Positions 15,001 to 33,840 of a DNA stretch of 51,156 nt are shown piece by piece. Where the stretch lies: contig JALPYG010000001.1 of NCBI GenBank assembly GCA_023271215.1, positions 1-51,156 of the forward strand, written 5' to 3'. The position numbers and the translations under genes were made by a program. The DNA comes from Dehalococcoidia bacterium. Lineage in GTDB: Bacteria; Chloroflexota; Dehalococcoidia; SZUA-161; SpSt-899. The notes below the pieces were generated by a model. That model did not search any database, was not told the origin of the DNA, and worked only from the letters and a program-made list of their open reading frames with translations. Every line of letters begins with the position of its first letter. The stretch's first letter is position 1.

Positions 15001-17657
15001 CCAATCTTCCCAGCTTCGTCACAATCTATTACCGTGCCAAAGCCCGCAATTCCCTAGGTCGGGTATACGGTGATGAAAAGACTTTCGTAACCCAACACTA
15101 CCCCGCGGTTACCACAGGTTCTGCTCTAAACATCACAAAGAACAGCGCTGCAGGCACTGGTAGGATAGTGGACATAGGCCATTACCTCTGTGACGAGCGG
15201 GGATTTGAATGGGGTACTGAGCCCGGGGTGTATCCGAATAGTGTAACCGAGACAGGGACTTTCGGCGTGACCCCCAGGCGTGAGCATTACACCCTGGCGT
15301 TAACCAATCTCCCCAGCTTTGTTAGAATCTATTACCGCGCCAAGGCACGTAATCTTACTGGATGGGGATATGGGCAGGAGGTATCATTCATTACAGTATA
15401 CCCTCCCGTAGTTTCCACCCGGAGACCCACCTGGATACACGGAACTGTTGCTACAGGCCATGGGAATATATCGGATGTCGGTCATGAACTTGCCAGCGAG
15501 CGGGGGTTTGAGTGGGGGACTGAACCCGGTGTATACCCCAATAGTGTAACCGAGACTGGCTCTTTCGGTGTGAACGAATGGCATCAAACTTACACCTTGG
15601 TGTTAACTGGTCTTCCTGTTAACACTGTAATCTACTATCGAGCTAAGGCTCGTAACAGTGCTGGGTGGGGATATGGAAATGAGGTAGCTTTTTGGAGCAC
15701 GCGTCTCCCCGTAGTGGCAACTATTGGCCCAGCACGGACCCGTGAAGAGCGTCGATGGATGACGTGGATTGCTGCAACCAAAGCCCGTGTCTGGGGGCGA
15801 ATAGTCTATACAGGTAGTGGAAGATGGGTTGGGGGGAGGCTGGTGGATTGGGAGAAATGCACTGTGCGGGGATTCGAATGGGGCACTGAACCCGGCGTGT
15901 ATCCCAATAGTGTAATTGAAAAAGGGAATTTTGGTAGCAATAGGCGTTTCCCTTTCCGGTACGAGCTTCTGCTCACTGGTCTTCCCCCAGATACCAAAAT
16001 CTACTTCCGGGCCAAGGCTAAAAACTCAGTCGGGTGGGATTATGGTGATGAGAGAACTTTCTCCACTGCGCATGCCCCTGCAGTAGTTACTCATAGCGCT
16101 ACAGGCATCAGAGCAACCAGCTTCACCGGTCAGGGAGAGATAACCGATACCGGCAGTGATTGGGAGAGATGCAGTGAGCGGGGTTTTGAGTGGGGGTTTT
16201 CTCCTGGCGCATACGTTGACAGTTTAACCGAGACCGGCACCTTTGAAAAGGGGCCTTATTCTCGACTCTTAACCGGACTTCCTAGTAACACTACGATTTA
16301 TTACCGTGCGAGGACCCGCAACACCGTGGGGTGGGCCTACGGTAACGAAAGGTCCTTTGTCACTCTGGAATTATTCCTACCTACTGTGAAGACTGGAGTT
16401 GTTCAAGAAACAGAGACCGTATACGTTACCGACATCACTGGTACCACGGCTGTTGCCCACGGGACCATAGTAGATGACGGCAATGAATACTGTGATGAGC
16501 GAGGCTTCGATTGGGGAACCTCTCCCGGCGTGTACACGAACAGCGTAACGGAGACGGGGGTTCTCGCCTTTGGCAGCGGGCCTTACTCCCTGACTTTGAC
16601 CGGGCTTCCTGATGGTACCACCATCTTCTTCCGAGCCAAAGCGCGCAATTCCCTTGATTGGGGCTACGGCGAGGAGACGTCTTTTACTACTCCCAAGATA
16701 GTGATCCCCACAGTGAGCACAGGAGATGCCACAGACATCGATGGAACCCGTGGTCTTATTCACGGAGCAATAACTCATACAGGCTGGGAGACTTGTACTA
16801 AGCGAGGTTTTGATTGGGGATTCTCTCCCGGTGTCTACCCTAACAGTGAGATTGAGACTGGGGCTTTTGGAACAGGGGCTTTCATGGCATGGTTAACAGG
16901 GCTTCCCTATAATACCGCAGTCTATTATCGCGCCAAGGCACGTAACTCCATCGGATGGGGTTACGGTTCTGAGAAAACCTTTAATACCGCACACGTCCCT
17001 ACAGTAACAACCCAGGATGCCACAGACGTCACGCGAAACAGTGCCACTGGCCACGGAAACATAACCGATGTGGGCAGGATGACCTGCGACCGACGTGGTT
17101 TCGATTGGGGACTGCACTCTGGTTTGTATATAAAGCGTACACTCAGCCTGGGGACCTTCGACGTAGGGGCCTATACCCGTACATTGCACGACCTCCCTAC
17201 TGGTGCTAGGATCTATTATCGGGCCATAGCTCGCAATCCTGTAGGGTGGAGTTATGGTAATGAATTGTTCTTCTTCACCCTGGGATTAGAACCCCCCACG
17301 GTAATTACCAAGAAGGCTGTAGACATCACCACAAACAGCGCTCTAGCCTTTGGAGAGGTAGTTGACACCGGTGGAGAGGATTGTGATAAGTGGGGCTTTG
17401 AGTGGGGAACCACCCCTGGCTTGTATCCCAACAGTGTAACCGAGACAGGGATTTTTAAGGGAGGAATCTTTTTGAAGGCTTTAACAGGGCTTCCTGATAA
17501 TACTACGATTTATTTCCGTGCCAAGGCTCGTAACCCTGCCGCAAACCCTACCGGATGGGGTTATGGGAGTGAGTTAAGTTTTACTACTCTGTCTGCGGCC
17601 GCACCCTTGGTCGGCGGCCTCCCGGCTGTCAGGGCGGCGGAGATGATCCTGGTATGA
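12054..17657 (+). CDS. giant surface/fibre protein: N-terminal propeller-like repeats plus 16 FN3/Ig-like ~95-aa repeats
   Basis: Five GIGGDxxxIWH-type ~45-aa repeats sit in the first ~210 aa. They are followed by 16 units that each end in (I/V)YYRAKARNxxGWGYG..F.T. Confidence 0.85.
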   Translation: MSFGSVIRSAGAPYPHHSGVGIGGDANRIWHIQYNAHMRVCRVYELSTVDFSVLQAANYDGLWAVGGIGGDASRVWAGAWRRGSRHLRVMELSASTLGHIRAAYGWRNLSSRGIGGDANVIWHIWQNMVGGGFYLAERSVDNLSVIRSVGCPWWTAVGGNTKVIWAGALHELSTVDFSTIRAAGSPGGSGVGGDEKTIWSCSGSQVFEINAAVLLEPIVTTNPATEIRRTSARAHGEITDVGAEMANERGFEWGTTPGLYPNSVTETGTFGVGPYSLTLTGLPSIVTIYYRAKARNPVDWGYGDELTFFTVDPPAVTTRSIADLTPTSATGRGFITDTGGINCDERGFDWGISPGVYINTVTEAGSFEAGAYSLSLIGLPVDTIIYYRARAHNPSGWSYGNEVSFTTGLVEVPTVETLEVTDITHVSAVASGKILSTGGEDCEEYGFEWGVSPNLTDSMTGIGAWKELTFSEVLRDLLPGTTYVFRAKARNSAGWGFGPLLSFTTIGRPAVLTRAVTGITPTSARIHAFIADTGGPGWRVLERGFEWGFSPGVYIDSLTEEGTFGAGRYSLSLTGLPSFVTVYVRAKVRNVVGWAYGGTIQFITVHVPVLSTLPPTQVGPTSAIARGRIIDIGYDSPTERGFDWGTEPGALINSVTETGSFGAGPFSLPLTGLPEDSWIYYRAKAKNAAGWGYGGVAPPEPGEEPPPGEAGDVESFHTAILPTVVTHPASEIAGTTAMGNGAITHSGFVYCTEWGFEWGIEPEVYPNSVTATGDFEVGLFSRFLTGLPDDTTIYYRAKAHNSAGWGYGSEEFFVTEKIVPPEVNTYDAVDIRAFTVIGRGEITHWGWETCTERGFEWGTSPGVYPNIVTDSGSFEEGGYSRIITGLPTDTTIYYRARARNSAGLGYGMERTFKTRLLILPSVMTYDATHVTEVEAMGQGFIIDDGGEDCVERGFEWGESSGVYPNDVTQTGAFRTGHYSLLLANLPSFVTIYYRAKARNSLGRVYGDEKTFVTQHYPAVTTGSALNITKNSAAGTGRIVDIGHYLCDERGFEWGTEPGVYPNSVTETGTFGVTPRREHYTLALTNLPSFVRIYYRAKARNLTGWGYGQEVSFITVYPPVVSTRRPTWIHGTVATGHGNISDVGHELASERGFEWGTEPGVYPNSVTETGSFGVNEWHQTYTLVLTGLPVNTVIYYRAKARNSAGWGYGNEVAFWSTRLPVVATIGPARTREERRWMTWIAATKARVWGRIVYTGSGRWVGGRLVDWEKCTVRGFEWGTEPGVYPNSVIEKGNFGSNRRFPFRYELLLTGLPPDTKIYFRAKAKNSVGWDYGDERTFSTAHAPAVVTHSATGIRATSFTGQGEITDTGSDWERCSERGFEWGFSPGAYVDSLTETGTFEKGPYSRLLTGLPSNTTIYYRARTRNTVGWAYGNERSFVTLELFLPTVKTGVVQETETVYVTDITGTTAVAHGTIVDDGNEYCDERGFDWGTSPGVYTNSVTETGVLAFGSGPYSLTLTGLPDGTTIFFRAKARNSLDWGYGEETSFTTPKIVIPTVSTGDATDIDGTRGLIHGAITHTGWETCTKRGFDWGFSPGVYPNSEIETGAFGTGAFMAWLTGLPYNTAVYYRAKARNSIGWGYGSEKTFNTAHVPTVTTQDATDVTRNSATGHGNITDVGRMTCDRRGFDWGLHSGLYIKRTLSLGTFDVGAYTRTLHDLPTGARIYYRAIARNPVGWSYGNELFFFTLGLEPPTVITKKAVDITTNSALAFGEVVDTGGEDCDKWGFEWGTTPGLYPNSVTETGIFKGGIFLKALTGLPDNTTIYFRAKARNPAANPTGWGYGSELSFTTLSAAAPLVGGLPAVRAAEMILV

Positions 17658-17673
17658 GGTAACAGGAGGTGCG

Positions 17674-18948
17674 ATGAGATATTCGGTGATTTCCAAAGGA
17701 CTGTCTCTATCCCAGATGGAAACAGAGGTTCTGAAGGCCGGCGGCAAAAGTGTAAAGAAGGCGGCCCTTGTGGACGAACTCTTCTGTGAGCTGGACGAAC
17801 CATCCGCCGAGAAGCTGTCTACTATTCCAGGGCTGAAGGTAAGGCCGGTGAGGGTTATAACACCGACCTCACTGATAGCGGACCCGGTATTACCCGTGGG
17901 GATGCCGGCGGCGCAGCAGATAATGACCGTCTCCGATGTTTTCCAGACGATGCGCTCTTACTTTATGCCACCGCTCAGCGGCATGGGACTCACCGTGGCT
18001 GTGCTCGACAGCGGAATAAGAAAGACGCATGAATCCCTCAAAAGGAAAATCGTCTATGAATTCAACGCTACTGAAGCCCCAGGCCACGACGATATCTACG
18101 GACACGGCACCGGGGTCGCTTACCTCATCGCCGGCGGCACGGGTGGGGTCAATGGGAGGGGCGGCGTCTCCCCCGGCGCTTCGATAATAAACATCAAGGT
18201 GCTCGATGATGAGGGAATTGGCACCGAGGAGACGGTGGTTATGGGGATTGATAAGGTGTGCCAACTGGCCCAAGATGCCCGCGAGGCCGGCCGGTGGCCC
18301 ACCGACGAGATGTATCCTAACATAATCAATGTCAGTATCGGAGCGGAGGACACCGGTGAAGTGGACGACCCAATGCGAATCGCCTGCCGGAAGGCCATCG
18401 AGGATTACGGCATCGATGTAATCGCCGCTGCAGGGAATGCCGGGCCGAGGAGGACTACAATGATGTTACCCGCCGCTGAGCCGGAAGTAATCGCCGTTGG
18501 GGGCGTCATAACCGGAGATCTCCAGATATGGGAGAGATCATCGAGAGGTCCCACGGTGCTGGGGGATACCAAGCCCGACTTCGTCTTCTGGGCGACTTCG
18601 CTGGAGGTTGCAAGTCACAGGGGCGACGACCGGTACGATGAGAAGTCAGGGACTAGCTTTGCCGCACCGATGGTCTCCGGACTGGCAGGACTCCTCTGGG
18701 AGACCGGCAGAAGAAGCTACGGGGAGGCCTGGACTTTCCGGTGGACGAGGGCCAGGGAGTTTGCCCCATTCTTCAGTATTAAACCAGCCGATGCCCCGAT
18801 GATGAAGGGCAACACTTACGGCTACGGCATGCCGGCTATGGGAACGATGGTGGGGATGATCGACAGACCTGAGCCAGTGTTTGATGTAACAAGGATGCTC
18901 CCCATGATCATGATGATGGGAATGATAGGGGTAATCGGTCGAAGATGA
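17674..18948 (+). CDS. subtilisin-like (S8) serine protease with Met-rich C-terminal anchor
   Basis: Catalytic-triad contexts VAVLDSGI, GHGTGVA and SGTSFAAPMVSG. C-terminus VTRMLPMIMMMGMIGVIGRR. Confidence 0.85.
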   Translation: MRYSVISKGLSLSQMETEVLKAGGKSVKKAALVDELFCELDEPSAEKLSTIPGLKVRPVRVITPTSLIADPVLPVGMPAAQQIMTVSDVFQTMRSYFMPPLSGMGLTVAVLDSGIRKTHESLKRKIVYEFNATEAPGHDDIYGHGTGVAYLIAGGTGGVNGRGGVSPGASIINIKVLDDEGIGTEETVVMGIDKVCQLAQDAREAGRWPTDEMYPNIINVSIGAEDTGEVDDPMRIACRKAIEDYGIDVIAAAGNAGPRRTTMMLPAAEPEVIAVGGVITGDLQIWERSSRGPTVLGDTKPDFVFWATSLEVASHRGDDRYDEKSGTSFAAPMVSGLAGLLWETGRRSYGEAWTFRWTRAREFAPFFSIKPADAPMMKGNTYGYGMPAMGTMVGMIDRPEPVFDVTRMLPMIMMMGMIGVIGRR

Positions 18949-19373
18949 TGAGGAAGAAACCCATGACTTCAACATTGGCAATCCCACAGTTACAGGTGCT
19001 TGGTGAGGTCACCGGTAACATACTCATCACGGTGCCGATAACGAACAAGGGCCGTGCCTGTGATGCGGTGGTGAATCTCTACATCTTTGAGGGGTCCTGG
19101 CTGCCTGGGGCTGGTGATCTCCTGGCAAGTTACTCACAGACTGTTTCGTTCCTTGAAGGGGAACAGAAGGGGGTGGTGTTCGCTCATACAGTGATACAGA
19201 CCGACGCGAGCCGCCGGGACGTTGGCGTTGAGGTGGTGGTCGGCGACTCGGTTAAGGCCTCTGCCCAATTTGATGATGTTTATCATGTGCCTACTGGGCC
19301 GGGGTTGATCGATAACATGATGATGATTATGATGATGGCGGTTATGATGACGGTAGTTCAAATAGGTGAATAA
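18945..19373 (+). CDS. CARDB/Ig-like beta-sandwich protein with Met-rich C-terminal anchor
   Basis: ATGA overlap with the protease stop. VPITNKGRACDAVVNLYIFEG... is paralogous to 19527..20039. Tail LIDNMMMIMMMAVMMTVVQIGE. Confidence 0.65.
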   Translation: MMRKKPMTSTLAIPQLQVLGEVTGNILITVPITNKGRACDAVVNLYIFEGSWLPGAGDLLASYSQTVSFLEGEQKGVVFAHTVIQTDASRRDVGVEVVVGDSVKASAQFDDVYHVPTGPGLIDNMMMIMMMAVMMTVVQIGE

Positions 19374-19529
19374 ACAAATGGAGGTAAAAAATGAGTGGGG
19401 TAGTGGCTCCTGCACTCGTCCTACCCTGGACGAGAATAAGAACAAATGGAGGTAAAAAATGAGTGGGGTAGTGGCTCCTGCACTCGTCCTAGTCTGGACG
19501 AGAATAAGAACAAATGGAGGTGAAAAATG
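19374..19529 (+). repeat. 68-bp tandem direct repeat, 2.3 copies, each carrying SD+ATG
   Basis: Copies at 19374-19441 and 19442-19509 differ at only 2 positions. A partial third copy provides the SD and ATG of 19527..20039. Confidence 0.9.
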
Positions 19530-20039
19530 AATACACTAGTGCCACAGCAGGTCTGGATTCCAGCACCCCCTCCGGTCCGACTCCCTCCCCCGGATGTCTG
19601 GATTCCTGTGATTCCTGAACGCCCCCGGATTCAGGCATGGACACCGCTCGGCTGGGTCCCACTGGCAACGGGGCCGACGTTTCCTCCCGGGACAAGAATC
19701 AAGATAGAGGTCCCTATAACCAACAACAGCAACGAGAGTTTCAGCACTCGTATAAGGGTGGGGATCTTCGAGGGGAGTATACTCCCGGGGCGCGGGGACC
19801 GTATAGCAACGATCGACTCATCGTGGCAGACGCTAACTGTCGGGCAAACGCGGGACTTTTCCGTGACACACACTACCAGACTGAGAGAAGGTGTAGAGCG
19901 CCGGGACGTCAATATAGAGGTGCAGTACCTGGATGCCGGCAGGGTGACCTCGGGTGGAGAACGGGAGTGGGATGATCTCTTCTGGGTCGAGGAAAAGATC
20001 GAGTTTGTGATAGGTGAACCAACAGTCACGGCGGCGTAA
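19527..20039 (+). CDS. CARDB/Ig-like beta-sandwich protein
   Basis: VPITNNSNESFSTRIRVGIFEGSILPG... aligns with 18945..19373. It has a Pro-rich N-terminus. Confidence 0.65.
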   Translation: MNTLVPQQVWIPAPPPVRLPPPDVWIPVIPERPRIQAWTPLGWVPLATGPTFPPGTRIKIEVPITNNSNESFSTRIRVGIFEGSILPGRGDRIATIDSSWQTLTVGQTRDFSVTHTTRLREGVERRDVNIEVQYLDAGRVTSGGEREWDDLFWVEEKIEFVIGEPTVTAA

Positions 20040-22824: not shown

Positions 22825-25200
22825 GTGAGTGGAACAGCAATAGTAACCATCGGCCCAAAGCAGTGGGAGGTGTATCTTGCCACCACCTATGAGGAGATCA
22901 TCCAGGGCCTCGGGGAAGTCATCGGCATCCCACCACAAACGGGGATGCTCTTTGACCTGGGTTACGACCAGGTCATCACCGTCACCACGGTGCCTATGCT
23001 TTTCCCACTGGATATAGTCTTTATTTCAAGCGACCTGCGAGTGGTAGACATAGCGAGAAATGTCCCTCCGGGGAATCTGGTAGTCTCAGACGAATTTGCT
23101 AGGTATTTCCTGGAAGTCAACGCCGGCGAGGCCTCCGGGGTGCAAATAGGGGACGAGGTTCACGTCCATGTTCTGGTTTATCCTGCTGAGATAAGAATTC
23201 CTCCTCCTCCTCCCTCCATGGATGATATCATTAACTTCGGCATGACCGCCATGGCGATGCTGTTTGCTGGGAACATAGCCGTGTCGGTGATTGAGAGTGC
23301 CCTCGCGCCGCCTGAGAAGGAGAAGGAGCTTCTCCCCGGGCGAAAGCTACTCCCTCCAGGGAAATTGCCTCTACTTCCCCGCACTAAGGGCAGCCGCGAG
23401 CGCGACCCTTGGTTTGGTAAACAGGCAGTCGAGATCCAAGATATAACTGGCGAAGAGTTAAAAGCTATTATCAAATCTGGTGAGCATCCTCTTGGTCTTT
23501 ATATCGGGCCTAGGTACTTTATTCCGACAATAGAGCCTGGAAGGATTGTTGGCTACCTCCAAGTGGTGCCAGGCATCCCACGGCGCCGACTCCGTGTGCA
23601 TGATACTATGCCTCGTCTACCTGATCCCACACCTGGGAAGACAAAACTGGAGCAATTGCAAGGGGGAGCCTTAAAGTTGTACCGCACAATCATTGACAGA
23701 TGGCCCGAGGGACCTCCTGATCCTTGGCCAGAGGAATTCGAACAAATAATGGACCGTCTCGCCAAACTGGCAGATGAGATAATCGCAGAAAGGAAAAGGC
23801 GAGGGCTTCCGCTTATTCCCCTGACTCGCGATCCCTCGAACAAAGAGCTAACGGGGAAGTGGTTCGATCGGGGGGTGGAGGCAGGAAAGACCGATGGCTG
23901 GATGACGCTGGAAGACACGGTGGGGGAGACGCTGGAAGACCATCCGAAGATAAGAGACGCAGCCGAGTTGGTCTGGACCGACATTGAACTATGGGAGGAA
24001 ACCGATCACTTCCAGATACTATATGGTGCGAAGATAATGGAAGACGCTGGCGGGGACATAGATCTCTATTCCGACTTGAAGGCAGAGTTCTGGGAGGGTT
24101 ACCTCACCGGCAGGAAAGAAATAGGATTCGACATCTACAAGATAGCCGCGGAACTGATACGGCAAAGGGAACGCGGTCTGGAAAAACCCGAGGACCCATT
24201 GCCGAAGGTCGAGGGGAAGCACCTGCCAAAGACAGCAGATAAGCGGCGCAGGACTGGGAATATAGGGAAAAAACTTCGGCCTACTAGGGATGACGTAGCC
24301 GTGAGAGCTTGGTCGGAGCGTGACCGACTGGGTATCTGGATCGTTGATAATCGCACCGATGAGACGATTGCTGAGTGGTGGGACGAAGCTGCTCGTGAAA
24401 TGTTTGAGGCCGGGTTCTTTAAGCCAGGTGTTCCTCAGCACTCATGGGAAGAGCCAAGCCGGGAATTCGTGGACAGCGTCCTAGACTACGCTGAAGACAT
24501 GGGGTGGCTGGCTAAGGACAATCCTTTCAAGTTCTCACCCCGGACCGCAGCGGGGGGAAGGAAGATAAGAGCTCGCTCCATCACCCTGCGAAGACTTGAG
24601 GGGGATCGACAGAGAGACGATTTCTCATCCCACACGCTAACACCTCTTGATGATAAGAGCGTCTGGGAGAGAGCCAATAGCCTGCTTCGTAAATGGTCAG
24701 AGACCGCGCCCCGCAGAGGAGAAGGCTACCATAAGGTAAGTTTTATCGTCACCTATGAAGACGGTGAAACATACCAAGGGCGATTCGACCTGAAACACTA
24801 CACTGTCGAATACCCCGACTTGGCCAAGCACATATATCACTTCGTTGCCTTCTATGCTGGGAGATACCGCCCACCGCACATGACAGAGGAGCAATACAAG
24901 GAGTTTCTGGAGGATCGGATTGTGGTCGAGATCAGAACAGACTTTATAAACTTCTTGGATAATTATGAGATAGGTAATGGTTCCCCAAAAGGAAACCCGG
25001 GGGAGGTCAGCCCGCGTCTCATTGGCCGAATCAGGCGCCCGGAGACCCCGGAGAGGCTGGAGTTCTTTGCCGACAGTAGAGACCACATCGAGGACAGCAT
25101 CAAGGGTAACGGCCTCCATCCTCAGCTTGAAGCCGTCTTCTTGGAAAGCATCGCGCGGGCCAAGGGAGAAAAGATAGCCAAGAAGATAATGGGGGACTAA
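22825..25200 (+). CDS. large protein: DUF192-like N-terminal domain, one TM segment, long unknown C-terminal region
   Basis: GTG 22825 follows GGAGGTG. GMLFDLGYDQVITVTTVPMLFPLDIVFISSDLRVV...YFLEVNAGEA resembles DUF192. TM segment FGMTAMAMLFAGNIAVSVI. Confidence 0.65.
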   Translation: MSGTAIVTIGPKQWEVYLATTYEEIIQGLGEVIGIPPQTGMLFDLGYDQVITVTTVPMLFPLDIVFISSDLRVVDIARNVPPGNLVVSDEFARYFLEVNAGEASGVQIGDEVHVHVLVYPAEIRIPPPPPSMDDIINFGMTAMAMLFAGNIAVSVIESALAPPEKEKELLPGRKLLPPGKLPLLPRTKGSRERDPWFGKQAVEIQDITGEELKAIIKSGEHPLGLYIGPRYFIPTIEPGRIVGYLQVVPGIPRRRLRVHDTMPRLPDPTPGKTKLEQLQGGALKLYRTIIDRWPEGPPDPWPEEFEQIMDRLAKLADEIIAERKRRGLPLIPLTRDPSNKELTGKWFDRGVEAGKTDGWMTLEDTVGETLEDHPKIRDAAELVWTDIELWEETDHFQILYGAKIMEDAGGDIDLYSDLKAEFWEGYLTGRKEIGFDIYKIAAELIRQRERGLEKPEDPLPKVEGKHLPKTADKRRRTGNIGKKLRPTRDDVAVRAWSERDRLGIWIVDNRTDETIAEWWDEAAREMFEAGFFKPGVPQHSWEEPSREFVDSVLDYAEDMGWLAKDNPFKFSPRTAAGGRKIRARSITLRRLEGDRQRDDFSSHTLTPLDDKSVWERANSLLRKWSETAPRRGEGYHKVSFIVTYEDGETYQGRFDLKHYTVEYPDLAKHIYHFVAFYAGRYRPPHMTEEQYKEFLEDRIVVEIRTDFINFLDNYEIGNGSPKGNPGEVSPRLIGRIRRPETPERLEFFADSRDHIEDSIKGNGLHPQLEAVFLESIARAKGEKIAKKIMGD

Positions 25201-25234
25201 AGCCGCGTCAAATACTGTCGCCTAGAGGAATGAC

Positions 25235-25990
25235 ATGACAGGATACATTTCTTACCGATCACCAAACGAAGATTGGCTCAACGCTATGTCTCGATTCATG
25301 GGCTTTGCGGTGGTAGGTGCATTTGCGGCCAGCATCGCCAAAACCATGATCGAGGATACGTCCCCTGAGCCTACGCCTGAAGAGGCTCATAATAATCCTA
25401 ATCCCGAACCAATACTTATTCCCTTTGCAGAGGCTCCCAAGTGGGTAAGAAAAGAGTGGCAGTGGTTATATGGACGAACAAGACCACGGGTTGAACTATA
25501 TCGTACAGAAGTCGCTAGAATTACTCCACCAACCTTTGAATATGCAGTAAGAAATATTGTAGCACACAAAAAAGGCCAAATAATGAGACGATATGTCCCC
25601 AGTTATGATACTTTGTTAGCTTCGACGCGGGAAGATCGAACACTATACTTTGGCGGGGGTGTGAAGCTCAAACCGGGTGAAGCAATTGCGGTCATGGATT
25701 ATTGGGGAGACAGATTTCAAGGGATTAAACTTTATATTCACCCAGCGGATTATGAGCCACCAAAATTGATTAAACCTGATTTAACAGAAAGGCAGATGAA
25801 AATTTTAGCTACTATAAGCGCCTACAAACCAAGATATCGCAGAGAAGTACTTAAAGCTGCTAAGGTAACCCAGGATGAACTTGACGAATTGCGTAAAATG
25901 GGACTAATTGATGCTAGAGGAGCTATCACTATCACAGGCCGTAATATTGTAGGTGCGGAGGACCCTTGGGGAATGATTGATCTTTACTAG
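25235..25990 (+). CDS. N-terminally anchored protein with C-terminal winged-helix-like domain
   Basis: The N-terminus MTGYISYRSPNEDWLNAMSRFMGFAVVGAFAASIAK is shared with 26001..26504. The C-terminus LTERQMKILATISAYKPRYRREVL...LIDARG is MarR-like. Confidence 0.55.
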   Translation: MTGYISYRSPNEDWLNAMSRFMGFAVVGAFAASIAKTMIEDTSPEPTPEEAHNNPNPEPILIPFAEAPKWVRKEWQWLYGRTRPRVELYRTEVARITPPTFEYAVRNIVAHKKGQIMRRYVPSYDTLLASTREDRTLYFGGGVKLKPGEAIAVMDYWGDRFQGIKLYIHPADYEPPKLIKPDLTERQMKILATISAYKPRYRREVLKAAKVTQDELDELRKMGLIDARGAITITGRNIVGAEDPWGMIDLY

Positions 25991-26000
25991 AGAAAATGAC

Positions 26001-26504
26001 ATGACAGGATATATTTCCTACCGATCACCAGACGGAGATTGGCTCAACGCTATGTCTCGATTCATGGGCTTTGCGATGGTAGGTGCATTTGCGGTCAGCG
26101 TCTCCAAAAGCGTGATCGAGGGAATGACCCTCAAGGAGGAGAAATTCCTTCCAGCAACAGTCGAATCGGCAGAGGGAAAAACACTACGGTTTGCCACCGA
26201 GACAAGGGCAATTACCGGAACTACCTTAAAGAGATGGCAACGCCAAGGCAGGGCGTATCTGCTGCAACCCGGTGGTTTTTATGGAGCTGAAGGACTAAAA
26301 CCCAAGTTATGGGTTGTAGACAATACCATCTATCAATTAGACCCAATAATAGGCTACCATTGGACATTCCTCCCGGCAAGGAAGGAAGATTTGGCTCAGA
26401 AGACAATAGAGCGGTTAGCCAAGGAGCAAAGACTTCCCCCGGCAGTGTCAGGAGGTGGCTCTGGAGAAGTGGTAGATATACTCAAGGAGGCAGCATACAG
26501 ATAA
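26001..26504 (+). CDS. paralogue of 25235..25990 in the N-terminal anchor only
   Basis: ATG 26001 follows the same AATGACATGACAGGATA context as 25235. Confidence 0.55.
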   Translation: MTGYISYRSPDGDWLNAMSRFMGFAMVGAFAVSVSKSVIEGMTLKEEKFLPATVESAEGKTLRFATETRAITGTTLKRWQRQGRAYLLQPGGFYGAEGLKPKLWVVDNTIYQLDPIIGYHWTFLPARKEDLAQKTIERLAKEQRLPPAVSGGGSGEVVDILKEAAYR

Positions 26505-26505
26505 G

Positions 26506-29310
26506 ATGGTTACCGCAGCCACTGTAACAGCACCAAGAACCATCTCAATGGAAGAATTCCGCCGGGAATGGGAGCCGAAGGGGTGGAGACTTATTATCAT
26601 CGGTCCCACCTCCACTTGGCGCCAAGAGTGGGGGATGTGGGAAGCCATCAGGGACATTGTCCAGAACTCATGTCCACACGATATGCCTCTTCTGATTTTG
26701 CAAAACCAGAGAGTTAAGTTTGTGCCCATTGGGGAATTTGTGGAAATGCATTTGGAAGATGAAAGGCAGGGCACCGTTAAAGACGAGGTTTATGCCTTAT
26801 CCTTCAAGAATCACAAAAGCCGGGGATATAAGCTGAGATGGCAAAGGATTCACAAAGTCTATCGCCATCATTATCAAGGAGATATGGTTGAGGTATCTCT
26901 CACCAATGGCCTAAAGGTAAGGGTTACCTGCGGGCACAGCTTATTCCGGAGAGACCTCAAGAAGGGCAGGATGTGGCTATGCTCTGTTCCCACTGATCGG
27001 TTGCACAAAACAGACTATATTGCCATTCCTTTTGCTAAATTGCTTGATTTCCCCGCCGCGGATGAAGTTGACTTGCTGGAGTTTCTTGAGCAGGAAAAAG
27101 ATTCCCTTAGAGTTCGAGGTATGTGTGATACCCTAGAATCCGTAGGTGTGGAAGTCAGTAAAGACGGCCGGAGCCGGGATTCGATCCCGCTCTGGACGAT
27201 ACCTGTTCCTCTACCGAAGGATACCTTACTTGGATACCACCATGCTTCCCATCCTGTTCGTAGAACTCTTCCCCTTGAACCACTGGCCTATCTACTCGGA
27301 CTTTACCTTGCAGAAGGTTCAATTGTGAATCACAGGAAGAAGGGCGACAAAGCTGTGTGCTTTTCCTTAGGTACACATGAGCATGAAGTCCTAGAGAAAG
27401 TGAAGAGGTGCGCCGAGCAAATTGGGGTAGGGGTCTCAGTTCAGCACCCACACGAAACAGCCATAAACACTGTCCTTAAATGTCATGTTCTTGCCCTTGT
27501 TTTTGAAAGGCTTTTTGGGAAGACTCGAGCAAATACCAAAGCCATCCCGGATTTTATTTTTAATCTCCCACATAAATTCCAGACGAAATTCCTCGAAGGA
27601 TACTTTGACGGCGACGGCTATGATCAAGGAGACAGAATAATTATAACCACCGCATCAAAGAAAATAGCCCAAGGTCTCCAGTATCTCCTTCTTCTTAATG
27701 GTATTCCCTTCAGCATCGAAGAGCAAGAAGGTAAAGAAAGGGTTATTGGCAAAAATAGAACCTTCTCTGGACCAGCAAATTACCTCTATATTCGCAAGTC
27801 GGGTCTTAACGGTAATGTCTCAAAGAGCCCTATTGCACGACAAAGGTGTGGTGACCTTAGCTTCGTCGGTGTGAAAGAGATTAAGCCTGTCGAGTATAAG
27901 CATCCGTGGGTCTATGATATAGGTGTTCCAGGGTGCGAGAACTTCGTCGGCGGGGAGAGTCCAGTCATACTACATAACTCCCTCGACGAGGCTGAAAAAT
28001 ATACCTGGGGCTTTGATGAAGAGGGTCTGTGGATCAAGGACCGGGGACAGGGCGTCCAGGTTGCCGACTTCCTCTTGGGTCCTCCCAGAACCAAGCCGCC
28101 TCATGCCAGGGGAAGATTTGGCGAAGGGATGAAGATCGCCGCCCTGGTGATGCTCCGCGAGGGATATGCCATCAGGATAGATACCGTGGGTCGGTCGGTG
28201 TGGATGATCTTCCTGGAGCAGGAAATAAACGGTACTGCCGAGGTCCTGGCGGCTATGTGGCGGCCCAATGGCTTGGACAGGGGAACTCGTTTCCACATCA
28301 TCGGCTACTTCGGGGATGACTACAAGTGGAACTTCGCTGTAAATATCCCCAGGAAGTTCATTGCTCATGAGGGCCCCAGCCGGCTCCACGAACCCATCAG
28401 ACGTTTCAACCAACTGATACTTTCCCCCAGTGGTAAGATCTACGCCCGGGATATCTACATGAGGGACATCAAGAGTCCCTACTCCTACAACCTCTGGAGC
28501 TTTGAAATGGCTCCCGATCGCCATGGCCCAAAACATGAATCCGACATGTGGGTCGACATGGGTCGCCTCTGGGCTACCTGCAAGCGCAAAGAACCCCTGC
28601 AGGTCTTGCTTCGGATGGTATCTATGCCTCCTGTTCTTGCAACTGATGAGTCTGTCAATCTCTCCATGAGTCCCTGGGACATGGGCCCCGAGCCGGTTTC
28701 CGGGAAGCGTTATACCGAAATCATGGAAGACAACAAGAAGGTGTGGCAGGATGCATGGAAAGAGGCTCACGGCGAGAATGCTGTCCTCAGACAGTCGGAT
28801 CGCTGGGACACTATGGTGACCCACCTAGGATACAAGTCGGTTAGTGTTTTCTACGGTGTTACTGATGCCCTTTCTAAGGTTATCTTGACTGATGAAGCTC
28901 TCATTCGGGACTCGCAGAAAAGGCTGGCTGAGGTTGAGATTATTCCTGATGAGGAGCTCACTGAACGCCAGCGTGCTCACCTCAGGCTGGCGCGCAAAAT
29001 AGCCGAGGCGACCCTAGTGCGTGAGCTTACCGGTGTCCACGCTGCCATAATACCCCCGGCAAGCGATCGGATGCGCACCGCGGGTCTCTACAGCTCAGCG
29101 GCTGAGACAATATACATCGCTGCTGACCAGCTCAACACGGCTCGGGCAACTGTGGATGTCCTGATCCACGAGATGGCTCATCATACCAGCGGGAGAGAAG
29201 ACGGCGATCCACTTCACAATGCACAGATGACGGTCCTGGGATCTCGGGTGGTGCAGTTGACAGCAGAGGGGCGCTTTGACGAGGAGTTGAAGAAGGCGGT
29301 GTGGTATTAA
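26506..29310 (+). CDS. GHKL (HATPase_c_3/MORC-like) ATPase with C-terminal HExxH domain, interrupted by an intein
   Basis: The extein gives the N-box DIVQN(S)SLDEA, the G1 box IKDRGQGV and the G2 box GRFGEGMKIAAL. The C-terminus has VLIHEMAHHTSGRED. Confidence 0.75.
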   Translation: MVTAATVTAPRTISMEEFRREWEPKGWRLIIIGPTSTWRQEWGMWEAIRDIVQNSCPHDMPLLILQNQRVKFVPIGEFVEMHLEDERQGTVKDEVYALSFKNHKSRGYKLRWQRIHKVYRHHYQGDMVEVSLTNGLKVRVTCGHSLFRRDLKKGRMWLCSVPTDRLHKTDYIAIPFAKLLDFPAADEVDLLEFLEQEKDSLRVRGMCDTLESVGVEVSKDGRSRDSIPLWTIPVPLPKDTLLGYHHASHPVRRTLPLEPLAYLLGLYLAEGSIVNHRKKGDKAVCFSLGTHEHEVLEKVKRCAEQIGVGVSVQHPHETAINTVLKCHVLALVFERLFGKTRANTKAIPDFIFNLPHKFQTKFLEGYFDGDGYDQGDRIIITTASKKIAQGLQYLLLLNGIPFSIEEQEGKERVIGKNRTFSGPANYLYIRKSGLNGNVSKSPIARQRCGDLSFVGVKEIKPVEYKHPWVYDIGVPGCENFVGGESPVILHNSLDEAEKYTWGFDEEGLWIKDRGQGVQVADFLLGPPRTKPPHARGRFGEGMKIAALVMLREGYAIRIDTVGRSVWMIFLEQEINGTAEVLAAMWRPNGLDRGTRFHIIGYFGDDYKWNFAVNIPRKFIAHEGPSRLHEPIRRFNQLILSPSGKIYARDIYMRDIKSPYSYNLWSFEMAPDRHGPKHESDMWVDMGRLWATCKRKEPLQVLLRMVSMPPVLATDESVNLSMSPWDMGPEPVSGKRYTEIMEDNKKVWQDAWKEAHGENAVLRQSDRWDTMVTHLGYKSVSVFYGVTDALSKVILTDEALIRDSQKRLAEVEIIPDEELTERQRAHLRLARKIAEATLVRELTGVHAAIIPPASDRMRTAGLYSSAAETIYIAADQLNTARATVDVLIHEMAHHTSGREDGDPLHNAQMTVLGSRVVQLTAEGRFDEELKKAVWY
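26668..27978 (+). mobile_element. intein with LAGLIDADG homing-endonuclease domain (~436-437 aa)
   Basis: N-terminal (S)CPHDMPLLIL. Block B GLKVRVTCGHSLF. LAGLIDADG motifs LLGLYLAEGS and FLEGYFDGDGY. C-terminal VYDIGVPGCENFVGGESPVILHN followed by Ser. The first intein residue is either Ser (26668) or Cys (26671). Confidence 0.8.
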
Positions 29311-29432
29311 GAATTCAAAACCTGGAGCAGGCGTTGAGCGATGGGGCAAGACAGTGTGAAGAGACCCCATGGGCATAATGAGGATAGCGATGATGGCAGG
29401 GATTCTGCTAATAAAGAAACCGGAGGAATAAG

Positions 29433-29870
29433 ATGCCTATTCAACAACAATTGGCAGAGATCACCTCGATTGAGGTCCCGCCGGAGATTCAGGTGGGAAA
29501 GGTCCTCCCCATCAGGGTGCAGGGCACGATAGGCATTCCTCTTGTGGGGTATCTATTTGCGGGTCTTCTTGAGCCACCGGCGTATAACACCTACAGGAGC
29601 TTCAGATCTACCCCGATACTTACCTTTTTGCCACCAAGTTTCGACATTGTCATGGAACTTGATGTGCAGATGGACAACGTCCTAGGGGTAAATCAGCTTC
29701 GAGTCGATCTGGTAAGCGGGCAGACGATTGCCACAAGAAGGGTTGAGATTTTAGTCAAAGCACCTGAGGTGACGCCCACTCCACCGGATATCATGGGCCC
29801 GATGATGGGCATAATAGGGATAGCACTGGTGGCCGGGTTAATGGCTCGGATGATAAAACCAGAGGAATAG
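29433..29870 (+). CDS. Ig-like protein with Met-rich C-terminal anchor
   Basis: C-terminus PDIMGPMMGIIGIALVAGLMARMIKPEE. Confidence 0.6.
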   Translation: MPIQQQLAEITSIEVPPEIQVGKVLPIRVQGTIGIPLVGYLFAGLLEPPAYNTYRSFRSTPILTFLPPSFDIVMELDVQMDNVLGVNQLRVDLVSGQTIATRRVEILVKAPEVTPTPPDIMGPMMGIIGIALVAGLMARMIKPEE

Positions 29871-29888
29871 GGTCAAGGGAGGGAGGAA

Positions 29889-30260
29889 ATGCCTACAGTC
29901 GCAGAACAGTTGGCGAGCGTTTGGGACTATATTAGTGGTGCGGGAACTCTCGTAGAAGACCACGCGATTGCAGTCTGGAGAGAAGGCAGATTCCACCTGT
30001 ATTCGACATTCGTACCTATCGACGAAATTGGATACTTTCGCTTTAGTGAAGCACCCTGGCTCTACGCTACCCAGGATTGCGTACTGACTTATAAAGGGAT
30101 GACGACGCCGCTCTACACAGGATGGAACAACATCGCGTGGTTAGTAGACGAAGAGCCGCCGGCGACGTGGATGGATATGCTCATGCCAATAATCATGATA
30201 GGGATGATGGGATACGTGATGTGGCCGATGATTAAAGGGCTTTTCAAGAAGGATAAATAA
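29889..30260 (+). CDS. tail-anchored protein with Met-rich C-terminal helix
   Basis: GGGAGGGAGG SD. C-terminus WMDMLMPIIMIGMMGYVMWPMIKGLFKKDK. Confidence 0.6.
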   Translation: MPTVAEQLASVWDYISGAGTLVEDHAIAVWREGRFHLYSTFVPIDEIGYFRFSEAPWLYATQDCVLTYKGMTTPLYTGWNNIAWLVDEEPPATWMDMLMPIIMIGMMGYVMWPMIKGLFKKDK

Positions 30261-30262
30261 CT

Positions 30263-30892
30263 ATGGTAATGGACCTGCGCCCAAAGCGTGGTGGATTCCT
30301 TCGTCCATTTTTCTTGGGCATATTCATCCGCGATTACCTGTTGGGCAAGGGGCCCTTCGGGTCCGAAATGGTTGACCCTGATCGCGGTGCAGCTCAAGAT
30401 GATATCCGAGCAGCCTATAAAGATGCACTTTTCAGAGAGTATGCCACACGGGCTGTGGGTGAAGAACAAGCCGATCGCATAGAACGCGGAGAGGAACCCT
30501 TTACTGAGGAGGAATGGCGCGAACGCTGGTTAACCCACCTAGAGCGTATCCCGCAGAGGCTCACTAGAATGAGATCCCATTCCTTCTATCGCTACTTCCA
30601 CCACCTGAAGCAACTGGGATGGGTAGAACTAACCGGGGAAGAGGAGTCGTCATTTCGGGGCGGCATAGTAACCCCTGAACCTTGGGGTAAACCCGGGGCA
30701 ATAGTGATAAAAACCGATGAACTAGTTCCTGGAAGGGGAACAATACTAACAGAAGTCCCGAAACCACGACGCCTTTTCCGCCTGACTGCTAAAGGAAAGG
30801 CTGCCACAGAGGACGAATGGCGGGATCCCCTCCAAGCCCTTCATAATTATCCTACCTGGCGACGGCAAGGCCAACCGCCACCGAAGAACTGA
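30263..30892 (+). CDS. hypothetical protein, possible winged-helix
   Basis: SFYRYFHHLKQLGWVELTG looks like a recognition helix plus wing. Weak call. Confidence 0.5.
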   Translation: MVMDLRPKRGGFLRPFFLGIFIRDYLLGKGPFGSEMVDPDRGAAQDDIRAAYKDALFREYATRAVGEEQADRIERGEEPFTEEEWRERWLTHLERIPQRLTRMRSHSFYRYFHHLKQLGWVELTGEEESSFRGGIVTPEPWGKPGAIVIKTDELVPGRGTILTEVPKPRRLFRLTAKGKAATEDEWRDPLQALHNYPTWRRQGQPPPKN

Positions 30893-30928
30893 ACTCCTCC
30901 CCCATGAGGGATAGCATCCCTAGTCCGA

Positions 30929-30963
30929 CGGCCCTTCCGAAAGGAAGGGCCGTTTCTTTTTAT
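30929..30963 (+). terminator. intrinsic terminator
   Basis: CGGCCCTTCC-gaaa-GGAAGGGCCG followed by TTTCTTTTTAT. Confidence 0.8.
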
Positions 30964-31215
30964 CCTCAACAGACTATCCCCTAGTGGGGGAAGGATTGAA
31001 CTTATTAGTTCCTCAAGTCGAACAAAAGGACTTTTTGTTTGATAATAAACTTGGAAGCTGAAGCTGAAAGGCGTGAAACAAGCGACTGGACAGCTTAACC
31101 TTAACAACTGAATAATGAAGCCGAAGCCCGAACACTTGCCCAGTCTGAAGCATAAAATATCCCGTAGCCAGGGACAAGCTGACTACGGGAAATCTAACAA
31201 AGGCAGGAACGCACA

Positions 31216-32094
31216 ATGTTAGACTGTGGTAAGCATAGCACAGAGGGCACAGCAAGGCAAGAGCTAACCTATAAGCGACAGCGGGGATGTTGGTATTGGC
31301 GATGCCAGATATGCGGGCGAAGTGGTCAAGCACGCATACCAGACAAGGCGCAAGACCACTACCAGCATAACCCTGGTAACCCTGCGCTAGTGATATGCGG
31401 GCGATGCACGGAATACCGTTTTGACCCTGCTAGGGTGACATTAACATTAAATAATAAGCGAAACGGTAAGCACAAGAACGGAAAGAACGGAAAGCCGATA
31501 AAGGATAGCCAAGACTGCGACCCCGATAGCGAAAATAGCGAAGCCCTAGACGCACCTTGGGGCGATTATATGGCGATTGCCAAGCGATTTCAGCACAAGG
31601 CGATTTACCAGGACAGGGAAGACTTAAAGCATAATATCATGCTTTGTCTGGCCGAAGCCCACGCCAATAACGGGCACAACAAGCCGACCAGTCAAGCCTT
31701 GATGCACCGTATAGCAAGTCATACCGTGGCTAGGTATTGGCGAGAACGATACCAGCACGCTAACGGGGTAAATTGCCATAATTGCGCTAAAGACCAGCGA
31801 CAAGAGTGTAAAGATAGCGATCTATATTCTAGTTGCCCTAAAGCCATACGGGTTGAAAGCCTATCGAGGCCGATAACCGATGAAGATGGCAATATAACTG
31901 AGCTAGGCCAGCTCATAGCCGATGATCGGGCGATCGATATCCTAGACTGGATAGAGGTAAACACTTGGCAATTAGGCTATCCTCAAAGACTGGTAAACAT
32001 AGCCGATAAGATACAGCGGGGCGAAGCTCTATCGGATAAAGATAGGCAGTATCTAAGCCGATATAGGCGCAAGGCACAGGGCAAGTTATTTTAA
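31216..32094 (+). CDS. Cys-rich hypothetical protein, tentatively sigma-like (region 2/4-like segments)
   Basis: N-terminal CxxC...CxxC (CQICGRSG...CGRCTEY). DLKHNIMLCLAEA and a C-terminal RLVNIADKIQRGEALSDKDRQYLSRYRRK weakly resemble sigma regions 2 and 4. Confidence 0.5.
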   Translation: MLDCGKHSTEGTARQELTYKRQRGCWYWRCQICGRSGQARIPDKAQDHYQHNPGNPALVICGRCTEYRFDPARVTLTLNNKRNGKHKNGKNGKPIKDSQDCDPDSENSEALDAPWGDYMAIAKRFQHKAIYQDREDLKHNIMLCLAEAHANNGHNKPTSQALMHRIASHTVARYWRERYQHANGVNCHNCAKDQRQECKDSDLYSSCPKAIRVESLSRPITDEDGNITELGQLIADDRAIDILDWIEVNTWQLGYPQRLVNIADKIQRGEALSDKDRQYLSRYRRKAQGKLF

Positions 32095-32237
32095 TAAGAT
32101 GTCACGTTTCCCCTCAAAATCGCAATATATGTAGTGGAAGCACCGATTATGCTAGCGTGTCGCAGATAATCGGTAGCTTACTACTGAGCTAGCTGGTAGC
32201 TTGCCCACTACCAGCAACGCTAAGAGGGGGGTGAGTC

Positions 32238-33536
32238 TTGGAACAACTGAATATCGAGGGCAAGCGTTCGGGTGACGGCTTCGTGGCGCATAAGGCTACA
32301 CTGGTAAACGCTCTATCAAGAGCGATAGCCGACAGGGTGATGTTAAATGATGTTACCCTAGGGCGCAAGGGGCTTCTCGGATACCTAAGAGCCCTAGGCG
32401 GTAGTAACATTGTCAAGGTTACCCCCGCCAACGGTAGTGCTAGCGGGTCGCAGACTATCTTTAATAAGGGGCTTAAGGTTGTCTGTGGGGCTAATACCAG
32501 TTACCTAGCCGACGGGGACTGGATAGGTGAGAAGACTCCGATAACATTCTGCCAAGTGAGGGTGTGCCCATCTAACTCAGTTATCCCCAACATCGGGGCT
32601 ACCGAGCTAGCGGAGGCGTTGAATCGGGTGATACCGTTTAGCGCTAAAGATGATACCCGTCCAGTCTTACAATGTGTCAAGCTCATCGCCGAAAATGGCA
32701 AGCTGGCCTTAGTTAGCACCGATGGCTTTCGCTTGGCAGTAGTCAACCTTGACTGTCACGATGCCCAAGGGCAAGCGCTAGTAAACGCCGATGACCTCAA
32801 GGGTATTGCAGGGGCGTTAAAGCGGGCGAAGCGGGCAAGGATTGAGCTTACCGATGAGGGGCTTACCATCGACACTGAGCTAATTCGCTATAAGTGGGCT
32901 AACTCCGATGGTAACTATCCCGACTTTGAAAAGCTCATTCCTGCTGAGGAAGATTTTACCTGCTTCACTAGCTTTGATTCTGTCGAAGCTATCAAGGCGG
33001 TTAGCTCTCTCAAGTCCTTAGCCGATGGCAAGGAATATGCCATTGATCTAGTGATAGGTGATGGTAAGTTAGTTATGGCTAATCCCGACGCTAAGGGGCA
33101 AGCTGAGCTAGCGGCTAACACCGAGGGGCAGGGCAGAATAAGGCTAAACGGCCTATACCTTGCGCAAGCCTTGCGGGCTTGTAGTGGTATGGTAGATTTT
33201 AAGCTGTCAAGCCCAACTGCTCCAATGCTTTTTAGCGTTGATGGTTACCAGTTGGCAGTTATGCCAATGCAGATTCCGCCAGAAGCTGAAGCTAAAGAGG
33301 CAGAGGAAACAAAGGCAGAGACAAAGCCCACCGAAGCGGTAGCTGAAGCGGTAGCTGAAGCCGAAGCGGTAACGGGGCAAGCCGACCAAGAAGCCGAAAC
33401 GGTAGCGGAGCAAGCCGACCAGGGCGACCAGGTAGCCGAAGCGGTAGCCGAAGCCGAGGCGGTAGCCGAGCAAGCCGACCATGAAGCCAAGCCGAAGCGC
33501 AAGCGGAAAGACAGGGAAGCCGTAGCCGTAGCCTAA
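32238..33536 (+). CDS. DnaN-like sliding clamp (domains II-III recognisable) with unrelated N-terminus and ~100-aa Glu/Ala-rich tail
   Basis: TTG start follows AGAGGGGGG. VSTDGFRLAV, GNYPDFEKLIP, RLNGLYLAQALRA and QLAVMPMQ are colinear with E. coli beta ATDGHRLA, GRFPDYRRVLP, IGFNVSYVLDVL and YVVMPMRL. Confidence 0.7.
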   Translation: MEQLNIEGKRSGDGFVAHKATLVNALSRAIADRVMLNDVTLGRKGLLGYLRALGGSNIVKVTPANGSASGSQTIFNKGLKVVCGANTSYLADGDWIGEKTPITFCQVRVCPSNSVIPNIGATELAEALNRVIPFSAKDDTRPVLQCVKLIAENGKLALVSTDGFRLAVVNLDCHDAQGQALVNADDLKGIAGALKRAKRARIELTDEGLTIDTELIRYKWANSDGNYPDFEKLIPAEEDFTCFTSFDSVEAIKAVSSLKSLADGKEYAIDLVIGDGKLVMANPDAKGQAELAANTEGQGRIRLNGLYLAQALRACSGMVDFKLSSPTAPMLFSVDGYQLAVMPMQIPPEAEAKEAEETKAETKPTEAVAEAVAEAEAVTGQADQEAETVAEQADQGDQVAEAVAEAEAVAEQADHEAKPKRKRKDREAVAVA

Positions 33537-33565
33537 GAACGCTTGAACTCACAAAACAAAAAGCC

Positions 33566-33617
33566 ACGCACAAAGGGGAGTCTTTGCGAGGGGACTCCCT
33601 TTTTGTGCGTTTTTTTG
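33566..33617 (+). terminator. intrinsic terminator
   Basis: ACGCACAAAGGGGAGTC...GACTCCCTTTTTGTGCGT followed by T7. Confidence 0.75.
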
Positions 33618-33840
33618 TAAAGAGGGGTATTCGTTCCCCAGCGTGGGAGCGGATACCCCTTTCTTTGTCTCCGCCCAGAGTTGGGCAAACCGGGCAAGGC
33701 AATAGGGGTGGCCGCCCCCAGAACTCGCCCAGAATCGGATTCTGGAGCTTCAGTTATTGTCCCGTATGCCCAGCCCGAAGCTGGGGAAGGGGAGGTCTGC
33801 CCAAATCTAAAGGGAAATAACCATAAAAGGCTAATCAATC

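Follow-up and report, generated by a model that had tools for sequence, protein, structure and literature searches.

An open reading frame (ORF) at 26506..29310 on the plus strand of contig JALPYG010000001.1 (Dehalococcoidia bacterium, GenBank assembly GCA_023271215.1), of which positions 1 to 51,156 were analysed and are referred to as the window, encodes a predicted GHKL ATPase that carries a LAGLIDADG intein in its ATP-binding N-box and very probably ends in an HExxH zincin domain. The best explanation overall, to which we assign a probability of about 0.8, is a mobile intein from a lineage specialised on the N-box, residing in a core gene of virus-like elements, here termed GHKL-zincin, whose function we infer from context and analogy. 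Inteins at the N-box as such are already known; new are the host family, which is virus-borne, a pair of intein-filled and empty alleles, and a tree linking three host families.

Extent and integrity of the intein

The ORF comprises 934 codons plus stop, stays open through N-extein, intein and C-extein, and its start at 26506 matches the N-termini of intein-free homologues. A preliminary description, made from the DNA sequence alone, had proposed a LAGLIDADG intein here and comparison with intein profile models as a check. Models for splicing and endonuclease domains all scored above their cut-offs: Pfam Intein_splicing (PF14890) at residues 64-491 with 60.7 bits (cut-off 35.8), LAGLIDADG_3 (PF14528) twice with 67.3 bits (22.5) and Hom_end (PF05204) with 28.2 bits (21.1), and NCBIfam intein_Nterm (TIGR01445) with 28.7 bits (24.5) and intein_Cterm (TIGR01443) at residues 468-492 with 22.8 bits (15.6). 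The best relative of solved structure is PI-PkoII, the Pol-2 intein of Thermococcus kodakarensis (PDB 2cw7, E 1.5e-22), which likewise starts with Ser, shares the register of the window intein and has two LAGLIDADG motifs, but is archaeal and hyperthermophilic, resides in a family-B DNA polymerase and is 537 residues long.

In the alignment with PI-PkoII, block B (TxxH, T141-C-G-H144; 26926..26937) falls on KITSGHSLF, with ITSGHSLF in PI-PkoII against VTCGHSLF in the window. The two endonuclease motifs, LLGLYLAEGS (27292..27321) and FLEGYFDGDGY (27589..27621), which are also covered by the Pfam matches, retain their acidic Glu and Asp, respectively. Blocks F and G (VYDIGVPGCENFV ... VILHN; 27910..27978), placed by NCBIfam and by the same alignment, end in His490-Asn491. 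On either side, the N-extein (residues 1-54; 26506..26667) closes with W45-E46-AIR-D50-IVQ-N54, the first half of the N-box (EAIRDIVQN, residues 46-54), and the C-extein (residues 492-934; 27979..29307) opens with the +1 residue Ser492 and LDEAE, the second half (SLDEAE, residues 492-497).

An allele without the intein, which the preliminary description had suggested seeking in related contigs, was found in a syntenic locus of a Dehalococcoidia metagenome-assembled genome (L002; protein P0002, 90% identical to the extein). This locus aligns to positions 24199-26669 of the window at 94.3% and to 27971-33668 at 86.6% nucleotide identity, and lacks exactly 1311 bp. With a slash marking the insertion point, its empty site reads CAGAAC/TCCCTCGAC (with longer flanks GTACAGAAC/TCCCTCGACGAG), giving ...GTACAGAAC/TCCCTCGACGAGGCT... 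as the candidate homing site, whereas the junctions in the window read CAGAAC-TCA-TGT...CAT-AAC-TCC-CTC-GAC. It follows from the L002 sequence that the TCC after His-Asn in the window, the codon of Ser492, is the host's own.

The preliminary description had left the first intein residue ambiguous between Ser55 (26668) and Cys56 (26671). Cys is the most frequent intein nucleophile and directly follows Ser55, and a shared AACTC makes the exact junction in the DNA ambiguous; an intein at 26671..27978 would yield ...QNS-SLDEAE..., with an extra Ser in the N-box. We consider this start highly improbable. All aligned intein-free homologues (19 of 19) read QN, then Ala, Ser or Cys, then LDE, with exactly one residue between Asn and Leu (Ala in 219, Ser in 33, Cys in 23 and Thr in 1 across 283 family members), and the empty allele has TCC there, the same codon as that after His-Asn in the window. 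In addition, related inteins without Cys at position 2 (SLPYEE, SLTYDM, SITYQT, SLTADE) align gap-free from Ser1 to IGEFV (positions 21-25), in the register shared with the Ser1 intein PI-PkoII. Because of this homologue spacing, the 1311-bp gap in L002, the TCC codon, the Cys-less relatives and the PI-PkoII register, comparison of sequences settles the start on Ser55. The Ser option thus stands while the ambiguity and the Cys option fall away, and the intein extends from Ser55 to Asn491 (26668..27978, 437 residues), preceded by 54 residues and not by the 55 first counted.

It is also very unlikely, though less so than the Cys56 start, that the insert is a decayed intein that no longer splices and in effect inactivates the gene. 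Degenerate endonucleases are common among inteins, but here the 934-codon frame is open, every residue required for splicing is in place (Ser55, T141..H144, the block F Asp, H490-N491 and Ser492), both endonuclease acidic residues are kept (LLGLYLAEG, FLEGYFDGDG), and the exteins retain every invariant residue of their family. Five other family proteins, moreover, carry related inteins at this junction with intact ends at 37-51% identity, and therefore argue for long persistence under selection. The insert is best classified from its motifs as a mobile class 1 intein with Ser1 as the nucleophile and with an apparently intact LAGLIDADG homing endonuclease. Chance can be discounted as a source of these features.

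The spliced protein and its family

Splicing would remove the intein from between Asn54 and Ser55 of the mature protein and rejoin ...DIVQN/SLDEAE... to give 497 residues, predicted to form a GHL-type ATPase with intact N, G1, G2 and G3 boxes, a beta/helical middle part and a C-terminal HExxH zincin. The G1 box DRGQG (DxGxG; residues 512-516, 28039..28053) is invariant across the family, the G2 box or ATP lid GRFGEGMK (residues 536-543, 28111..28134) was located by profile alignment, and in the G3 box GTRFH (28282..28296) Gly and Thr are invariant. In spliced numbering, used from here on, the residues concerned are D50, N54 and D57 (N), D75xG77xG79 (G1), R98-G99-xF-G102-E-G104 (G2) and G156-T157 (G3); D50 is nearly invariant (at least 90%), the others fully so. 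From the register of the N-box, Asn54 is predicted to be the Mg-ATP ligand.

In profile-profile alignments with hhalign, the family was set on spliced GyrB (probability 79%, E 1.5e-5) with N, G1 and G2 in register and its IIGPTS on the YIGST of GyrB, and on spliced Top6B (probability 50%, E 1.7e-4) with N, G1, G2 and also G3 (G156-T157) in register. Asn54 thereby falls on the N-box Asn of both, which bears out the placement of the intein in a GHKL N-box and, from the profile search of the spliced extein that had been proposed, the original identification of DRGQG and GRFGEGMK as G1 and G2. An AlphaFold2 model of the intein-free P0002 (50 homologues; pLDDT 91, pTM 0.80) was compared with solved structures using Foldseek; its N-terminal part matched Top6B (1mx0, probability 1.0), MORC2 (5ofa, 200-308 columns, E 4e-3, TM 0.18), the ParE ATPase domain and the histidine kinase YycG. 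Among the models in BFVD, the best matches were uncharacterised phage proteins (E 6e-24, TMq 0.63), followed by many rIIA proteins and by HSP90- or histidine-kinase-like ATPases. The model has a helix over residues 44-59 with the insertion point 54/55 inside it; the intein breaks this helix right after the predicted Mg-ATP Asn, and by the geometry of the Bergerat fold the precursor should be unable to form an ATP site until it is spliced.

The putative zincin active site (H888-E889-xx-H892-H893, E898-D899 and H904 of the precursor, with HEMAHH at 888-893; 29167..29226) corresponds to H451, E452, H455, H456, E461, D462 and H467 of the spliced protein. H451-E452-xx-H455 and the extended motif HExxHH are invariant in the family and H467 and E461 nearly so; H467 or E461/D462 are candidates for the third metal ligand. 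The C-terminal part of the model matched abylysin (4jiu, probability 0.99, TMt 0.60) and selecase (4qhi, probability 0.90, TMt 0.58) in the PDB, and SprT-like, M48 and IrrE-like proteins in BFVD. These fold matches agree with the HExxH domain of SprT/zincin type first noticed at this end, and the domain is, on the evidence of motif and model, a minigluzincin or SprT-like zincin and a predicted protease.

Some observations weigh against the assignment of the two domains. The general-base position of the GHKL site, four residues before the N-box Asn and acidic in all 283 members (Asp 223, Glu 60), is Asp in the subfamily of the window and not the customary Glu. Against solved GHKL structures, TM-scores over the whole chain reach only 0.17-0.25, because a single domain matches. 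With the spliced extein as query, Pfam HATPase_c_3 (18.3 bits against a gathering score of 25, E 0.0025) and SprT-like (17.9 against 25.6) remained below threshold, the two reaching E<0.01 in 4 and 14 of 50 members, respectively. Finally, a search of the PDB with the family sequence profile returned nothing significant, the best match being that of the HExxH region to Aip56 (E 0.5). Given the sub-threshold Pfam matches, membership in MORC/HATPase_c_3, to which the preliminary description had likened the ATPase, or in SprT proper does not follow, while the GHKL fold itself holds; the assignment is carried by fold and profile-profile comparison, on which we are highly confident that the extein joins a GHKL ATPase of the GHL type to a zincin.

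The fusion had been regarded as unusual, but it proved to define a large, unnamed metagenomic family. Among the candidates scored from a set of 5.8 billion proteins, 380 clusters matched at E<=0.001; those listed were about 480-720 residues long, mostly near 500, and 55-90% identical. Searching 1.84 billion representatives with a profile gave 2624 proteins at E<=0.001, 180 of them at E<=1e-30, and in this search the GHKL part (profile positions 35-272) and the zincin part (318-498) also occurred separately or behind other N-termini. Scanning IMG/VR with the family alignment identified one locus only, the PADLOC scan of the spliced extein gave no family at E<=10, and we found no description of a GHKL-zincin fusion in the literature searched. 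The spliced extein matches phrog_6077 (E 1e-22) over the GHKL and middle regions. In cultured phages, tblastn matches of 22-27% identity, rV5-like phages included, are annotated as histidine kinase-like ATPase, sacsin-beta sandwich or RIIA; unlike the extein, these proteins and those of phrog_6077 cover only residues ~25-325 and appear without the zincin domain.

Some members, such as P0199 (1112 residues) and P0163 (936 residues), have N-terminal extensions of 350-700 residues. Pfam recognised a GNAT acetyltransferase domain in two of 10 extended members and nothing in the rest, and a Rosetta-stone link was rejected, as the extensions had no BLAST similarity to the neighbouring genes of the window.

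An intein lineage at the N-box of three ATPase families

Relatives were collected with a search restricted to the intein region, and their junctions were then read. In total, 31 intein-bearing relatives read N/S...HN/S at the N-box, all with Ser1 where the start is present. They include the five further family proteins mentioned above (with DxGxG, GxFGEGxK and a C-terminal HExxH, and the intein at the same N/S junction), to which the truncated P0371 adds another intein-bearing member; 11 Top6B proteins (...VDN/S...HN/SLDA), one of them named from Micrarchaeota and one adjoining Top6A in an archaeal context; and nine GyrB proteins plus P0209 (...DN/S...HN/SLDEAMAG), with named examples from Patescibacteria and Nealsonbacteria. 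In one Patescibacteria gyrB contig, the first three bases (L001:1-3) are the Ser1 codon of the N-box intein, possibly owing to an assembly break caused by a mixture of intein-plus and intein-minus alleles. More distant inteins lie in the G2 box of Top6B, TFIIB, VirB11-like ATPases, V-ATPase A, PolB and others.

A published catalogue lists 33 inteins for GyrB and 15 for Top6B (Novikova et al. 2016, PMC4760082). Outside the family, the Top6B N-box inteins come closest in sequence (E 1e-45) and, like the intein of the window, are inserted right after the Mg-binding Asn, have Ser1 and Ser+1 and carry a LAGLIDADG endonuclease; identity is only ~26-33%, however, and their host is the ATPase subunit of archaeal topoisomerase VI, not a GHKL-zincin of a bacterial virus-like element. 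The GyrB N-box inteins share Ser1, Ser+1 and the first five C-extein residues, SLDEA, with the window, but form a separate clade, are ~110 residues longer and reside in an essential cellular gene.

An unrooted tree of 43 inteins, 25 of them from the N-box, was calculated with IQ-TREE. All family inteins fall into one clade (100/99), whose sister is a single Top6B N-box intein (96/93), with another joining next (91/88). The GyrB N-box inteins make up a second clade (100/100), to which nine further Top6B N-box inteins are sister (100/93). In the approximately unbiased (AU) test, a single clade of all 25 N-box inteins is compatible with the data (p-AU 0.36), while a clade of family and GyrB inteins is rejected (p-AU 6e-10). 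Against a single N-box lineage it counts that the tree is unrooted, that two V-ATPase inteins on long branches group, weakly supported, with those of the N-box, and that the groups of the AU test were named after the tree had been seen. At the DNA level, the flanks are partially similar, with ATTGTCCAGAAC/TCCCTCGACGAG in the window, GGCGTTGACAAC/TCATTGGACGCT in the Top6B compared and /TCTCTTGACGAAGCG in GyrB. Such partial similarity between sites is often tolerated by LAGLIDADG enzymes. Taken together, junctions and tree point to an intein lineage specialised on the N-box position in the GHKL-zincin family, archaeal Top6B and Patescibacteria GyrB.

The position common to three GHKL families could also reflect vertical inheritance of one ancient intein from their common ancestor, without lateral spread. 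This is hardly conceivable with an intein that is carried by only 6 of several hundred family clusters, is missing from a 94%-identical element and differs by 9 points in G+C content from its own extein; furthermore, the GyrB sampled in the host phylum has a Toprim-site intein instead, and the family inteins branch from inside the Top6B N-box group instead of forming its sister. The G+C content of the intein is 46.1% (45.5% at third codon positions), compared with 55.4% (~64%) for the extein. This low value and the empty allele in the 94%-identical element point to recent lateral acquisition, probably by homing into a Ser-bearing allele, at a site common to paralogous ATPases.

When the intein was searched against 401 genomes from the host phylum, no close relative emerged, the best match having 28% identity, mostly in the endonuclease domain. 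One Chloroflexota GyrB (L018, G223:C1:5582727-5586185) has its intein at the Toprim DxD site, RILIM/SVAGDEP...YAHN/TDADVDG, and not at the N-box, and in five other genomes of the phylum the matches lie in open frames of the same length as this GyrB, ~1210 residues. The only other intein in the assembly of the window (contig C87, L003:73-3666, minus strand) splits a 1197-residue class II (B12-dependent) ribonucleotide reductase; with ends ...NP/CVSADTWIM...YVHN/CGEQ, it is of Cys1, Cys+1 type, and its site is unrelated to the N-box.

Element context and possible function

The left 39 kb of the window are a virus-like integrated element, with genes for a DUF5131 protein, an MCM-like AAA+ protein, a giant FN3 protein, an S8 protease, a short tyrosine recombinase, a DUF192 protein and a sliding clamp. 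The non-element genes at the right end and a flip in GC skew place its end near 39.4-40 kb. Beyond it, host or defence-island genes follow on the minus strand; the right end of the window, with minus-strand genes at 42833-43582 and 50366-51154, holds an OMP decarboxylase, a 1537-residue fusion of helix-turn-helix and NAD-binding domains and a reverse transcriptase truncated at the edge of the window. Elements only 55-60% identical keep the order recombinase, DUF192, GHKL-zincin ... sliding clamp, and by this gene order GHKL-zincin belongs to the core genes of a family of integrated virus-like elements. Within the host class it occurs sporadically, in 6 of 301 species genomes, only the copy of the window being split.

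A second conserved neighbour is a 209-residue protein at 30263..30892, which has no Pfam or PHROG match but is 38-41% identical to a 178-residue protein of L006 and to both halves of a tandem-duplicated 372-residue protein of L007, all of them encoded one to three genes downstream of GHKL-zincin. In L007, a ubiquitin-like conjugation cluster (Prok_Ub, Prok-E2, JAB and ThiF(E1); 16410-19530) lies between GHKL-zincin and the sliding clamp. In two of five loci (L006:11494-12810 and, from IMG/VR, L020:5167-6693), a gene for an ArdC-N domain with a zinc ribbon, without the peptidase of ArdC itself, overlaps the GHKL-zincin stop codon. The two genes look like a split, two-gene ArdC-like unit. Counting against such a unit in general, ArdC-N (PF08401) was not found in the genome of the window, which is 68% complete, so that the link is not universal.

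Among known systems, proteins of the phage T4 rIIA type resemble the extein in that a phage GHKL domain is followed by a different C-terminal module, and many rIIA models matched with a Foldseek probability of ~1.0; the resemblance is confined to the fold (E 1e-5 to 1e-3), with no rIIA PHROG or Pfam match of the extein, and rIIA proteins are without the zincin domain. Zincins of the ArdC, SprT-like and minigluzincin types share the small HExxH catalytic domain (fold probability 0.90-0.99, TMt ~0.6), while the domain of the window lies below Pfam cut-offs, is fused to GHKL instead of ArdC-N and has the motif HExxHH. Proteins of the rIIA type, with GHKL and a variable C-terminal domain, are regarded as poorly understood counter-defence proteins (PMC7824862); phage SprT and ArdC metallopeptidases are treated as counter-host factors, and ArdC, with a single-stranded-DNA-binding domain and a zincin, is thought to attack restriction enzymes (PMC6222260).

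In view of the conserved gene order, the ArdC-N overlap and these published counter-host roles, the extein is, by analogy, most likely used as an ArdC/rIIA-like counter-defence or takeover factor. Mechanistically, it may be an ATP-driven, dimerising clamp that gates the zincin or targets it to DNA-bound proteins, and would act during establishment or induction of the element; we regard this clamp model as possible, with the odds somewhat against it.

Two other roles were weighed. The gene could serve defence or superinfection exclusion from within a prophage, in which case the GHKL part would be the sensor or switch and the zincin the effector that acts on incoming phages. Anti-phage systems do include ATPases of the GHL/MORC type, according to a preprint (bioRxiv 10.64898/2026.09.30.754977), a recombinase is encoded nearby, and the distribution in the host class is sporadic (6 of 301 genomes). 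No PADLOC model matches, however, the sporadic distribution simply follows that of the element, and the fixed place beside recombinase and DUF192 in elements only 55-60% identical is that of a core gene and not of a moron, all of which makes a defence role unlikely. Less likely still is a morphogenesis factor, in which an Hsp90-like chaperone would be combined with a maturation protease for particle or membrane proteins. The neighbourhood does include genes for Met-rich membrane-anchored proteins, an S8 protease and a giant FN3 protein, and one remote match among the BFVD models carries the annotation of a putative structural protein from a Sulfolobales filamentous virus; yet the best profile and fold matches are DNA-acting GHL enzymes (GyrB, Top6B, MORC2, ParE) and not Hsp90, ArdC-N genes are translationally coupled in two loci, and the gene borders a replication module with the sliding clamp.

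Intein and extein can be combined in one tentative scenario, which we rate as somewhat unlikely in its entirety. A single intein lineage would track the GHKL N-box by means of an endonuclease recognising the coding sequence around ...V-x-N/S-L-D..., and would jump between non-orthologous ATPases and between domains of life (Top6B, GyrB, viral GHKL-zincin), with GHKL-bearing virus-like elements as the shuttle; the extein would be a new ATP-gated clamp-protease directed against DNA-bound host defences and paired in some elements with an ArdC-N protein.

For the elements themselves, GHKL-zincin is a large, unnamed and unstudied family and plausibly a new class of mobile-element enzyme. It is a new extein family for GHKL N-box inteins and the first virus-borne one seen here, and the tree linking its inteins to those of archaeal Top6B and Patescibacteria GyrB is evidence for spread between paralogous motifs. 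Judged by the +1 residue, ~20% of family alleles (Ser, Cys or Thr) could splice if invaded, and 77% (Ala) could not. With filled allele, empty allele and candidate homing site all defined, the locus offers a test system for how the +1 nucleophile limits the spread of inteins.

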